Below are positions 26,713 to 29,046 of a stretch of DNA of 64,000 bases, in pieces. Source of the stretch: Dictyostelium discoideum (Eukaryota); the NCBI GenBank assembly GCA_000004695.1, contig CM000155.2, forward strand, positions 480,001 to 544,000, read 5' to 3'. Made by a program: the position numbers and the translations under genes. The notes beneath the pieces are model-generated. The model ran no database searches, was not told the DNA's origin, and worked only from the letters and a program-made list of their open reading frames with translations. Positions within the stretch are counted from its first letter, which is position 1. The number at the start of each line of letters is the position of its first letter.

Positions 26713-29046
26713 ATGTATAATAATAATAATGGTGGGTTGGATGGTGAAGAAGATGATTTAAGGCAATATCATGATGGTGATGGTGGTATTGGTATTGGTG
26801 TAAATAATGAAGAAATAAAGAATGAACGTAATTTTATAGATGATGAAGAATATGATGATAATAATTTTAATAATGATGATGAAATTATAAAAAAAGATAT
26901 CAACAACAATAATAATAATAATATCAATAATAATGAAATAAATAATTCAAATGAAATTGGTACTACTAGTAGTAATAATAATAATAATAAAAATAATAAT
27001 AATACAACTATTGATGATGGTCATTTATCAACATTAAAACAATTTACATTTAGATCAGTATTAGTTGGATTAATAATTGGAGGTATGTTATGTTTTTCAA
27101 ATATGTATTATGGTTTACAATCTGGTTTCATTACTATGGGATCATTACAATCAACATTATTAGGATTTCTATTTTTTAAAGTATTTGCAAAACATTTTCA
27201 AATTAGATTCAATCAATTTGAAAATGTTTTATTACAAACCGTTGCTGTTGCAACGGCAACAATGCCATTGGCAGGTGGTTTCGTTGGTATCATACCTGCT
27301 TTAAAAATGTTATATGATGATGAAATTAATAATAAGGGTGTAAATAACAGTACAGCATCATTAGGATCGTCGGGATCGTCGTCGGAATTGGTTGGAGAAT
27401 TACCAAATTATTTTACATGGTGGGGATTGCTATTGTGGTCTTTTTCAATAGCATTTTTTGGATTATTCTTTTCAGTACCATTACGTAAACAGACTATATT
27501 AGTTGAGAAATTGAAATTTCCATCTGGCGCTGCAACTGCACAGATGATTAAAGTTTTACATAATTTAAAAGATACAGAAGTGCATTCAGAAATGTTGGTA
27601 AAGGAAATACATGGTGGTGGCAGTGGTGCGATAGAGAATTTAGGCGATGGTATACAGTTGATTGAGGATTCACCAAGGGGTCATTATCATGATGTTGGTG
27701 GAGAAGATGATGATTTATTAACATATGATGAGAAACAAATAAAGATTAAAAAGAGTTGGGATAAGAAAGTTAAGGTGTTGTTTTACTCGTTTTTAGTTTC
27801 ATTCATTTACACAATGTTAAGTTATTTCTTCCCAATTTTATCATCGATACCAATATTTGGAAATTATGTAAAGAGCACCTTCTTTTGGACATTGACACCA
27901 TCTTTTAGCTATGTAGGTCAAGGCATGATTATGGGCACAAGAACGGGTGTTTCTACACTACTCGGTGCAATCATTGGGTGGGGTATACTCGGACCAATTG
28001 CAAAGGCTTCCGGGTGGGTGGTAGCGGATCAGTCGAAATCAGCCGCATTGAATGGTGTGAAGGGGTGGGTGCTTTGGATATCTTTGTTCATCATGTTGGC
28101 CGAATCGTTGGTGTCATTGTCGGTGTTGATCATTAGGATGCTGTTGATAAAGTTTGGCGTGATAAAGAACCATAATGGCAAGTTTAGCGATGCCCAATGC
28201 GTTGACCCCGCACCACCTTCACAGAGGGTGCCCCATGCTTGGTGGATTGCAGGCACTATCGCTTCGGGTGTATTATGTGTGGTCATCGTTTCACCCTTGT
28301 TTGGAATCAAGGTATATGAGACTGTAATTGCGGTGGTGTTAAGTTTGCTTACAAGTATATTGGCAGTACGTGCATTGGGTGAAACTGACATTAATCCAGT
28401 TAGTGGTATTGGTAAAATCTCTCAAATTCTATTCGCAGTCATTTCACCAAAGAATATTTTAGCAAATTTAGTAGCTGGTGCAATTGCAGAAGGTGGTTCC
28501 CAACAAGCTGGTGATATGATACAAGATTTAAAAACTGGTCATTTAATTAAAGCTTCACCACGTGTACAATTCTATGGTCAATTAATTGGTTCATTCTTTT
28601 CAATCATTTTCGCTGTTGCAGCTTATCAATTATATTCCCATGCCTACACTATACCATCAGTGGATGGACTACAGGCACCAACTGCTGCTGTTTGGTTAAA
28701 TATGGCTAAATTGGTTAATGGTGGAGAATTGGCTCATAATGTATTACCATTTTGTATTGTATTGGGTGTATTGGTATCATTAATTCCAATTGCTGAAGCA
28801 TTTAATCCAAATCTTGAATATTATTTACCAAGTGGTATCGCTTTAGCAATTGGTTTCTATCAAACTCCAAATTATTCAATCGTTAGAGCCATTGGTGCTT
28901 TTGTTCAATGGTATTGGTTTAGAAAAAATAGTCATTCATTTAGAGAATATGGTATTATAGTTGCCTCTGGTTTCGTTTTAGGTGAAGGTATAACTTCAAT
29001 TTTTACTGCTATAATGACAATTACTCATGTACCTCAATTTAAATAA
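26713..29046 (+). CDS. OPT-family oligopeptide transporter (OPT/YSL superfamily), 777 aa, single exon
   Basis: Long ORF with an N-terminal Asn/Asp-rich cytosolic tail, then about 14-16 hydrophobic segments. OPT-like motifs are FTFRSVLVGLIIGGMLCFSNMYYGLQSGFITMGSLQSTLLGF, ...LKFPSGAATAQMI... and ...PNYSIVRAIGAFVQWYW. The middle third (about 27500..28400) has strikingly GC-rich codons. Confidence 0.8.
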   Translation: MYNNNNGGLDGEEDDLRQYHDGDGGIGIGVNNEEIKNERNFIDDEEYDDNNFNNDDEIIKKDINNNNNNNINNNEINNSNEIGTTSSNNNNNKNNNNTTIDDGHLSTLKQFTFRSVLVGLIIGGMLCFSNMYYGLQSGFITMGSLQSTLLGFLFFKVFAKHFQIRFNQFENVLLQTVAVATATMPLAGGFVGIIPALKMLYDDEINNKGVNNSTASLGSSGSSSELVGELPNYFTWWGLLLWSFSIAFFGLFFSVPLRKQTILVEKLKFPSGAATAQMIKVLHNLKDTEVHSEMLVKEIHGGGSGAIENLGDGIQLIEDSPRGHYHDVGGEDDDLLTYDEKQIKIKKSWDKKVKVLFYSFLVSFIYTMLSYFFPILSSIPIFGNYVKSTFFWTLTPSFSYVGQGMIMGTRTGVSTLLGAIIGWGILGPIAKASGWVVADQSKSAALNGVKGWVLWISLFIMLAESLVSLSVLIIRMLLIKFGVIKNHNGKFSDAQCVDPAPPSQRVPHAWWIAGTIASGVLCVVIVSPLFGIKVYETVIAVVLSLLTSILAVRALGETDINPVSGIGKISQILFAVISPKNILANLVAGAIAEGGSQQAGDMIQDLKTGHLIKASPRVQFYGQLIGSFFSIIFAVAAYQLYSHAYTIPSVDGLQAPTAAVWLNMAKLVNGGELAHNVLPFCIVLGVLVSLIPIAEAFNPNLEYYLPSGIALAIGFYQTPNYSIVRAIGAFVQWYWFRKNSHSFREYGIIVASGFVLGEGITSIFTAIMTITHVPQFK

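Follow-up and report, generated by a model that had tools for sequence, protein, structure and literature searches.

How did a stretch rich in G/C-ending codons come to lie in the middle of a protein-coding gene of Dictyostelium discoideum, and is it still being built? The gene in question, DDB_G0291554, sits within the 64,000-nt stretch of D. discoideum AX4 DNA analyzed here (the window), to whose first letter all positions refer (Table 1). Its product matches XP_635289.1 of D. discoideum AX4 exactly. Pfam OPT (PF03169) covers the gene's full length (E = 3.1e-118; residues 110 to 768 against profile positions 1 to 622 of 623), and its orthologues carry OPT transporter annotation, which places it in the OPT family. 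The gene is intronless; ancestral introns have disappeared from at least two sites, nt ~27106 and nt ~27542. A literature search by gene identifier found no paper on DDB_G0291554.

Table 1. Features of the OPT transporter gene and its surroundings (positions in the window)
Feature	Position	Strand	Remarks
Gelsolin-related gene	10155..15242		AX4-specific GC3 rise, a weaker copy of the OPT pattern
OPT-family oligopeptide transporter DDB_G0291554, CDS	26713..29046	+	Single exon, 777 aa; hosts the GC3 island
Zone of W>S-biased substitution in the D. discoideum complex	27163..28362	.	150-nt bins, residues 100-555
GC3 island (residues 344-545)	27742..28347	+	Maximum-likelihood segmentation; GC3 0.49 vs 0.15 in rest of gene; 2ΔlnL 86.6
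Antisense 120-aa ORF	28029..28391	-	Open in AX4 and L001 only; without Pfam match
Island core (residues 449-486)	28057..28170	+	GC3 0.76; peak codons common to D. firmibasis and D. purpureum
Genealogy switch among D. discoideum-complex lineages	28258..28672	.	Derived shared sites

A preliminary description of this DNA had reported a GC-rich codon island in the OPT gene and had named, beforehand, a profile of GC3 (G/C at the third codon position) along the ORF as the test that could refute it. The profile, taken in 30-codon windows along 26713..29046, upholds the observation: GC3 is 0.0-0.13 at the 5′ end, climbs to 0.77 at nt 28063-28152, and falls to 0.07-0.27 past nt ~28400, a strong deviation from the 19 other ORFs of ≥150 aa in the window, whose 30-codon GC3 averages 0.12 (standard deviation, 0.085; maximum, 0.50). 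The segment 28001-28500 has the highest GC of all 500-nt bins in the 64 kb (0.45 vs 0.22 overall), and GC within the island is 0.43 to 0.50 in 300-nt windows. Amino acid composition is not the cause, because the 102 G/C-ending codons observed at residues 330-555 exceed every one of 20,000 simulations (maximum, 56; 36.7 expected from the codon usage of the other ORFs); likewise, GC3 of a 30-codon window reaches 0.80 in this gene and at most 0.53 in simulation. A local peak in GC and GC3, typically ~1 to 2 kb wide and beyond amino acid composition, is one mark of a footprint of GC-biased gene conversion (gBGC). As for the limits originally given to the island, 27500..28400, the 3′ edge is about right and the 5′ edge lies ~240 nt too far out; GC3 is mildly raised (0.2 to 0.33) already from nt ~27200, 5′ of the segmented island. 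The statement that the island covers the conserved transmembrane core holds only in part: protein conservation is lower in the island than in the 3′ third, with identities to the D. purpureum protein of 73% in the island, 66% in its core, and 78% in the 3′ third.

The island is native sequence in a vertically inherited gene. Identities of the orthologues (99, 95, 84, and 68%) fall in taxonomic order across Dictyostelia, and synteny with the neighboring PRMT gene is conserved in L001, L003, L009, and L010. When BLASTP was run segment by segment, the order of relatives was identical for the 5′ part, the island, its core, and the 3′ part; for the island alone, it ran from D. discoideum through D. 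cf. discoideum, D. firmibasis, and D. purpureum to other dictyostelids. The CDS in an independent assembly, L010, is identical to that of AX4, and the island was found in four other assemblies.

The trait is lineage specific and varies by degrees across the D. discoideum complex, D. firmibasis, and D. purpureum. GC3 of the island is 0.45 in AX4, 0.47 in L001, 0.43 in L002, 0.30 in L009, 0.23 in D. firmibasis, and 0.20 in D. purpureum, while GC3 of the gene's 3′ third is 0.13 to 0.17 in all six; apart from AX4/L010, the lineages compared are long diverged from one another. Comparison with sister species had also been set beforehand, and hydrophobic amino acid composition does not explain the pattern found in the orthologues. 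In D. discoideum, D. firmibasis, D. purpureum, and P. violaceum alike, GC3 peaks at residues 451-480, and individual G/C-ending codons there are common to orthologues; the peak is lower in the first two relatives, at 0.47 in D. firmibasis and 0.40 in D. purpureum, and no GC3 peak was seen at these codons in the T. lacteum or H. album orthologues. Along the whole gene, GC3 is ~0.5 in P. violaceum and H. album. Because the peaks of D. firmibasis and D. purpureum coincide with that of D. discoideum, the core is probably the oldest part of the island. About one third (27 of 76) of the G/C-ending island codons of AX4 are shared with D. firmibasis, and synonymous divergence in the island is higher, not lower. 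An orthologue from the D. citrinum clade, sought to split the long branch, was not present in the protein collection.

The D. discoideum lineage has gained G/C in place, branch after branch, and the process is still raising GC. We polarized substitutions by parsimony, with D. firmibasis and at least one ingroup lineage, into changes from A/T to G/C (W>S) and the reverse (S>W). In the W>S-biased zone, the W>S rate per A/T site is 0.05 to 0.24 per 150-nt bin, and from nt 28363 onward it is 0.012; the zone ends sharply on its 3′ side and raggedly on its 5′ side. Residues 100-555 (bins 101-550) have accumulated 94 W>S and 15 S>W changes in the D. discoideum complex (56:10 in the island and 38:5 at residues 100-329), an excess relative to the flanks (Fisher p = 0.0027) that is to be read against a somewhat biased parsimony polarization, since the control regions are themselves at 1-2:1 (7:6 in the gene's 3′ third and 25:12 in the upstream PRMT region). 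The excess appears on every branch but that of L009, with gains spread over at least five branches. Overall, the W>S rate in the island is ~6 times that of the flanks, and the remaining substitution classes proceed about as fast as they do there: residues 100-555 show 83 W>S transitions, 11 W>S transversions, 19 W<>W changes, and 15 S>W changes, with per-nucleotide counts of the last two near those predicted from the 3′ part. Such a W>S excess without acceleration of other classes is a further mark of a gBGC footprint.

Transitions make up 88% of the W>S changes, with 50 A>G and 33 T>C on the coding strand, a mild A>G excess (p = 0.08). The island is all coding, and across residues 100-555 the W>S:S>W bias extends from synonymous (70:8) to nonsynonymous (24:7) positions, the latter including I>V, T>A, S>A, and E>G; most of the codons gained (such as TCG, TTG, GGC, CAG, and GTG) are ones that the window's other ORFs use least. 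Composition in the zone is heading for an implied equilibrium GC of 0.74 to 0.76, compared with ~0.45 today. The island's G/C sites are derived rather than retained: sites that are G/C in AX4 and A/T in both D. firmibasis and D. purpureum are not G/C enriched in four outgroups. Around mutated A sites, tests of Pol-eta-like and editing-like motifs yielded no clear sequence-context signature.

The W>S process is not specific to the OPT gene, because a gelsolin-related gene 13 kb away also shows a GC3 rise in AX4, with a W>S:S>W ratio of 32:2 on the AX4 branch at residues 841-1080. The product of that gene is cytosolic, not a membrane protein.

The 3′ edge of the island coincides with a switch in genealogy. 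All 31 derived sites common to AX4, L001, and L002 lie at or before nt 28258, and of the derived sites common to AX4, L001, and L009, 6 lie upstream and 5 at or beyond nt 28672 (Fisher p = 5e-4; p = 0.02 with non-W>S sites only). This distribution suggests an old recombination breakpoint in the interval between. Meiosis in D. discoideum proceeds without Spo11, and mapped meiotic crossovers tend towards low-G+C intervals (PMC6369745).

The best reading of these data is an active local GC-biased substitution hotspot, for which biased gene conversion, biased mutation, and selection are the candidate causes; the W>S excess is compatible with a fixation bias, with a local A:T>G:C mutation bias, or with selection for GC. 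We consider gBGC the most likely cause and give it about an even chance. Recombination between diverged alleles, in sexual macrocysts or parasexual diploids, would generate heteroduplex DNA that would be repaired preferentially to G:C, at a narrow hotspot of recurrent initiation or repair within the OPT gene body. Such a hotspot may have been weakly active in the group-4 ancestor, which would have left the shared core, then strongly active in the AX4, L001, and L002 lineages, while in L009 and D. firmibasis it would be quiescent or in decay; rare codons, dense G-runs, and an open antisense frame would be side effects without function. Gene conversion had been among the causes proposed at the outset: in the sense of copying from a donor it is not supported, and what survives is allelic GC-biased conversion or another local A/T-to-G/C process. 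More speculatively, Dictyostelium may possess narrow hotspots of recombination or repair within its gene bodies, which would keep their positions for long, be active in episodes, and convert with a strong GC bias, and of which the OPT and gelsolin-related islands would be footprints; this generalization is possible but less likely than not.

Some observations sit uneasily with gBGC. Genome-wide tests found no coherent sign of it in D. discoideum, in which intron GC is not linked to GC3 and the frequency spectrum of AT>GC intron SNPs is unshifted (PMC8321536). Mapped crossovers tend towards low-G+C intervals. The preponderance of transitions among W>S changes (83:11) could mean a mutational process rather than a repair bias. 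In addition, the peak lies mid-gene, with very AT-rich intergenic DNA on either side, unlike the promoter-centered hotspots of yeast and birds.

A local A:T>G:C mutation bias, produced by error-prone resynthesis during break or gap repair or by transcription-associated mutagenesis and involving no favored fixation, seems to us unlikely, although it would fit the acceleration of a single substitution class, the high share of transitions, the mild coding-strand excess of A>G, and the published lack of genome-wide gBGC (PMC8321536). The strand asymmetry is not significant, however, the mutated A sites show no context signature, and there is no known reason for a sharp stop at nt ~28363, mid-exon, or for activity in one sister lineage and silence in another; recombination accounts better for the breakpoint in genealogy at the island edge. 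Selection on the nucleotide sequence, acting through a run of slow or rare codons or a locally stable mRNA, by which translation of the transporter and its insertion into the membrane would be tuned, or through GC-dependent mRNA stability or chromatin, is less probable again. It draws on the coincidence of the peak at codons 451-480 in four species, with its shared G/C-ending codons, and on the mRNA itself: absolute folding energy per 300 nt is far lower in the island than in the 3′ part (-95 vs -58 kcal/mol), and a hairpin at 28104-28191 recurs in MFE and centroid structures. Yet when three 300-nt stretches and this hairpin were folded, the z-scores were not significant (0.08, -0.47, and -1.40), and alignment folding of five Dictyostelium sequences gave an unfavorable covariation term (+0.56), which leaves the earlier suggestion of selection on mRNA structure without support. 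Selection on translation, suggested with it, is weakened by the occurrence of this bias at nonsynonymous sites too, by the gain of least-used codons, and by the similar pattern in the gelsolin-related gene; moreover, ~200 codons far exceed a pause site, synonymous divergence in the island is raised, and T. lacteum and H. album lack the peak.

Two further accounts would make the G/C sites old or foreign. The island could be a relic of an ancestral gene with GC3 of ~0.5, as in P. violaceum, eroded elsewhere by AT-biased mutation; the high GC3 of P. violaceum and H. album throughout the gene and the third of AX4 codons shared with D. firmibasis point that way, as does a weak trend for AX4-specific G/C sites to be G/C also in P. 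violaceum (odds ratio, 1.96; p = 0.12, not significant). This account is largely refuted and very improbable: recent short branches carry 56 gains and 10 losses, erosion needs parallel losses at the same sites in several lineages, outgroup enrichment is not significant, and present GC is still below the implied equilibrium of 0.75. A foreign, chimeric, or misassembled segment, or one left by a single ectopic conversion from a GC-rich donor, is for practical purposes refuted, despite the abrupt 3′ compositional edge and a GC content unlike that of the rest of the genome. The preliminary description had raised horizontal acquisition or a chimera, but the nearest relatives of the island are those of its flanks, and neither an identical CDS in L010 nor an island in four other assemblies fits misassembly. 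It had also raised a single conversion from a GC-richer donor; blastn and tblastn found no donor paralogue in the 64-kb window, only one D. discoideum cluster is present among the 120 best protein matches, and the gains are stepwise across branches. An imported divergent tract is disfavored because too few neutral changes accompany the G/C gains (8 neutral vs 56 W>S).

Tracts of gBGC and W>S hotspots are known from mammals, birds, and yeast; for instance, human accelerated regions contain GC-biased clusters, and stable hotspots in birds show GC3 peaks. The OPT island resembles them in having a GC peak 0.6 to 1.2 kb wide with W>S in excess of S>W, in that synonymous and nonsynonymous sites are both hit and local divergence is raised, and in its episodic, lineage-specific activity and an equilibrium GC far above the genome average. 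It differs in its host genome, which is 22% GC, without Spo11, and reported to be gBGC free, and in its position mid-gene rather than at a promoter or PRDM9 motif. Position-specific conserved rare-codon clusters in membrane proteins, the sites of co-translational folding pauses, are similar in their genome-rare codons, in a peak at the same codons in orthologues, and in a polytopic protein; in contrast to them, the OPT island is ~200 codons long, its amino acid changes share the A/T-to-G/C bias, it evolves fast at synonymous sites, and it is paralleled in the gene of a soluble protein. Although group 4 shares the position of the core, we rejected a conserved rare-codon pause cluster on the length, the nonsynonymous bias, and the raised synonymous divergence.

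Within Dictyostelium, exons beside lost introns are GC enriched, which has been ascribed to cDNA-mediated gene conversion (PMC4683709). The OPT gene belongs to the same genus, has lost at least two introns, and is GC enriched. However, that effect was surveyed within ~100 bp of a lost intron, and the OPT peak is farther off, ~500 nt in the 3′ direction from the nearest site of intron loss; D. firmibasis, in which the same introns are absent, has a GC3 of only 0.13 to 0.17 around that site; and the gene's 3′ end, where cDNA-primed conversion should act most, is unaffected. Conversion linked to intron loss was rejected on the offset of the lost-intron sites from the peak and the lack of a GC rise there in D. 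firmibasis.

In work that separates selection from neutral forces in codon usage, D. discoideum has served as a “gBGC-free” reference (PMC8321536). The OPT locus offers a concrete place to test whether, and where, GC-biased conversion acts in this species. If such islands are common, codon usage and dN/dS analyses in Dictyostelium will need to mask them, as nonsynonymous W>S changes (24:7) could otherwise pass for adaptive protein evolution. If gene-body hotspots exist as proposed, island footprints could map the start sites of Spo11-independent recombination; should mutation or selection prove to be the cause instead, the locus remains a clean example of it in nature.

Folding, covariation, Rfam, and tRNA scans identified no structured RNA element or known RNA family at the island: the tRNA scan found no tRNA in the whole window, and an Rfam scan of 26500-29300 at a permissive E-value returned a single chance-level match, outside the island. 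One apparent compensatory pair (TCG/AGC vs TCA/AGT) is explained equally well by correlated GC3 gain. A G-quadruplex was rejected as the cause; there is no canonical motif, and the sole relaxed one, at 27933-27983, is a consequence, because its G's are derived gains. The antisense 120-aa ORF noted in the preliminary description is present in the ORF list, and we rejected it as a gene: it has no Pfam match, and its frame is not conserved in related species, being broken by stops in D. cf. discoideum L002, D. firmibasis, and D. purpureum. It is open because local GC richness means fewer stop codons.

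The OPT-family transporter gene DDB_G0291554, whose product is identical to the Dictyostelium discoideum AX4 protein XP_635289.1 (record length, 3.6 Mb), has a protein arginine methyltransferase gene on the minus strand as its upstream neighbor and poorly conserved ORFs downstream. Sliding-window GC at third codon positions (GC3) bore out the GC-rich codon island noted in the preliminary description. In 30-codon windows, GC3 was 0.0 to 0.13 in the first ~450 nt, 0.2 to 0.4 from ~27200, 0.5 to 0.77 at 27970-28300, and 0.07 to 0.27 past ~28400; the same statistic for the 19 other ORFs of ≥150 aa in the window averaged 0.12 (standard deviation, 0.085; maximum, 0.50). 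The GC-richest 500-nt bin of the 64 kb, whose overall GC is 21.9%, is 28001-28500. Amino acid composition does not account for the island: given the actual protein sequence and the codon frequencies in the remaining ORFs, 36.7 G/C-ending codons were expected in residues 330 to 555 (simulated maximum, 56) versus 102 observed, which rules out a hydrophobic or Gly/Ala/Pro-rich composition as the cause. Because G exceeds C at third positions of the core (0.38 versus 0.20), the enrichment is mostly in G-ending codons (for example, GTG, TTG, TCG, and GGG); codons of this type are rare in the window's other ORFs, and ordinary usage does not give the core density.

Features of the OPT transporter locus and other parts of the window
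Feature	Position	Strand	Remarks
OPT-family transporter gene DDB_G0291554	26713..29046	+	Single exon, 777 aa; Pfam OPT full-length match, E=3e-118
OPT N-terminal extension	26713-27010	+	Asn/Asp-rich, low complexity, ~100 residues
GC3 island	27742-28347	+	Likelihood segmentation; GC3 0.49 vs 0.15
Island core	28057-28170	+	Likelihood segmentation; GC3 0.76
Relaxed G-quadruplex motif	27933-27983	+	Loops up to 30 nt; only one in 64 kb
Gelsolin-related gene	10155..15242	-	Analyzed as control with D. firmibasis and D. purpureum orthologues
194-aa ORF	22500-23084	+	GC3 0.35 overall, up to 0.5; no Pfam match
ORF with Lys run	25104..25646	-	24 Lys codons (poly-A/T tract) at its end, 25104-25215

Synonymous divergence at the center of the gene is four to five times that at its ends (differing synonymous codons between AX4 and D. 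firmibasis, 0.45 to 0.59 versus 0.06 to 0.14). We polarized changes within the D. discoideum complex, taking as ancestral the state that D. firmibasis has in common with one or more ingroup lineages. Counts of A/T-to-G/C (W>S), S>W, and other changes were 56, 10, and 8 in the island (residues 330 to 555); 38, 5, and 13 in residues 100 to 329; 7, 6, and 9 in the 3' third (residues 556 to 777); and 25, 12, and 13 in 1.5 kb of reliably aligned upstream sequence. The W>S excess over control regions is significant (Fisher p=0.0027). Across residues 100 to 555, the spectrum comprised 50 A>G, 33 T>C, 11 W>S transversions, 15 S>W, and 19 W<>W changes; per nucleotide, acceleration is limited to the W>S class and is about sixfold. 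The W>S:S>W ratio is 70:8 at synonymous and 24:7 at nonsynonymous sites. The 3' edge of the zone is very sharp: 150-nt bins at 27913-28362 have W>S rates of 0.15 to 0.24 per A/T site, and the next bin has 0.012. Implied equilibrium GC is 0.74 to 0.76, and present GC is ~0.45. The excess is seen on the branches of AX4, another D. discoideum isolate (L001), D. cf. discoideum (L002), AX4+L001, and AX4+L001+L002, and is absent from that of L009, a further lineage of the complex; the D. firmibasis branch shows a net G/C loss in the core (5:12). Substitution in the island has been accelerated locally, in place, and for the W>S class alone, with the same bias at synonymous and nonsynonymous positions, and the process is still under way.

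In a codon alignment, GC3 peaks at codons 451 to 480 in all group-4 Dictyostelium species (AX4 and L001, 0.77; L002, 0.63; D. firmibasis, 0.47; D. purpureum, 0.40). Over residues 330 to 555 it is 0.45 in AX4, 0.47 in L001, 0.43 in L002, 0.30 in L009, 0.23 in D. firmibasis, and 0.20 in D. purpureum, while the 3' third lies at 0.13 to 0.17 in every species compared. Given this gradient, the island is a graded lineage trait. About a third (27 of 76) of its G/C-ending codons in AX4 are common to D. firmibasis, and on these alignments it probably joins a small core of older origin to a large extension gained recently by the D. discoideum complex.

The gelsolin-related gene proved not to be a neutral control. 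Its GC3 at residues ~781 to 1320 (11280-12900, minus strand) is 0.18 to 0.38 in AX4 and 0.05 to 0.27 in D. firmibasis, and on the AX4 branch W>S:S>W is 32:2 in residues 841 to 1080 versus 42:21 in low-GC3 bins (p=0.002). This AX4-specific rise points to the same kind of process, acting more weakly on the gene of a cytosolic protein 13 kb away, and suggests that W>S bias reaches beyond the OPT gene, which argues against a transporter-specific explanation.

Genealogy changes along the gene. All 31 derived sites common to AX4, L001, and L002 lie at or before nt 28258; those common to AX4, L001, and L009 divide into 6 upstream and 5 from 28672 onward. This change of grouping is significant (p=5e-4; p=0.02 on non-W>S sites alone) and coincides with the island's 3' boundary, as would be expected of a past recombination event resolved there.

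GC-biased gene conversion (gBGC) at a narrow hotspot would best predict all of these features together, and we give it about an even chance. The gene conversion proposed in the preliminary description survives in an allelic, GC-biased form alone; the window holds no paralogue. Between-lineage counts fit a fixation bias, a local A:T>G:C mutation bias, or selection for GC alike. Reports of no coherent sign of genome-wide gBGC in D. discoideum (de Oliveira et al., PMC8321536) and of crossovers biased to low-G+C intervals in its Spo11-less meiosis (Bloomfield et al., PMC6369745) count against gBGC; a marginal chromosome-level correlation is consistent with it (Pessia et al., PMC5635611). Local mutation bias, which the 83:11 ratio of W>S transitions to transversions might favor, is an unlikely source of the island, and no mutational context motif stands out around the changes. 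Somewhat less likely still is nucleotide-level selection, given the weaker version of the same pattern in the gelsolin-related gene; selection on translation, also proposed earlier, is weakened by that similarity and by the bias at nonsynonymous sites. Selection on mRNA structure was not borne out: folding z-scores were not significant (0.08 and -0.47 for the island; -1.40 for the sole recurrent hairpin), and the covariation term of the alignment fold was unfavorable.

A relic of an ancestral GC-rich state is improbable, because AX4 G/C sites with A/T in D. firmibasis and D. purpureum show no G/C enrichment in four outgroups (P. violaceum, C. fasciculata, H. album, and T. lacteum). Least probable is a foreign or paralogous origin. 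The nearest relatives of the OPT protein form a vertical series, from the other D. discoideum isolate (99% identity) through D. cf. discoideum (95%), D. firmibasis (84%), and D. purpureum (68%) to Polysphondylium, Tieghemostelium, Acytostelium, Heterostelium, and Cavenderia, then other amoebozoans and fungi. We retrieved the corresponding genomic loci from ten relatives. Separate BLASTP searches with the 5' part, island, core, and 3' part gave the same order, so the horizontal or chimeric origin raised earlier is rejected, as is contamination. Misassembly is excluded because the coding sequence of assembly L010 is identical to that of AX4 and four more independent assemblies also carry the island. 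The island exemplifies a known evolutionary phenomenon, the hotspot of W>S substitution, which D. discoideum is reported to lack.

The D. discoideum complex and D. firmibasis both lack two ancestral introns, at ~27106 (common to T. lacteum and C. fasciculata) and ~27542 (common to D. purpureum and C. fasciculata). Exons adjoining lost introns are reported to be GC-richer in Dictyostelium (PMC4683709), but we rejected this link: the peak is ~500 nt distant, the introns are gone from D. firmibasis too with no accompanying increase in GC, and the gene's 3' end shows no effect. An antisense ORF (28029..28391) exists as described, but as a candidate gene it was rejected, its frame being open in AX4 and L001 only. 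Rfam (26500-29300) and tRNA (whole window) scans found nothing relevant to the island. Runs of three or more G occur at 10 and 8 per kb in 27000-29000 versus an average of ~1.9; they consist of Trp codons and of GGT>GGG-type changes that are derived, and so probably result from the increase in GC.

The OPT N-terminal extension is confined to D. firmibasis and members of the D. discoideum complex, and its length differs among isolates (proteins of 776 to 788 aa). Just 3' of the stop codon (29174-30400), the alignment of AX4 to the other isolate collapses. Among the downstream segments compared (L001 5485-8223, L003 5389-8352, and the L002 flanks), the distances between the few stretches that still match imply ~1.3 to 1.6 kb in L001 and D. 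firmibasis that is missing from AX4, and the L002 flanks align to AX4 with both order and orientation inverted; structural variation therefore borders the locus. Elsewhere, the raised GC3 of the 194-aa ORF is uniform across the gene, unlike the local OPT island, and the Lys run probably arises where the ORF reads on into an arginine methyltransferase intron and so would not be coding.
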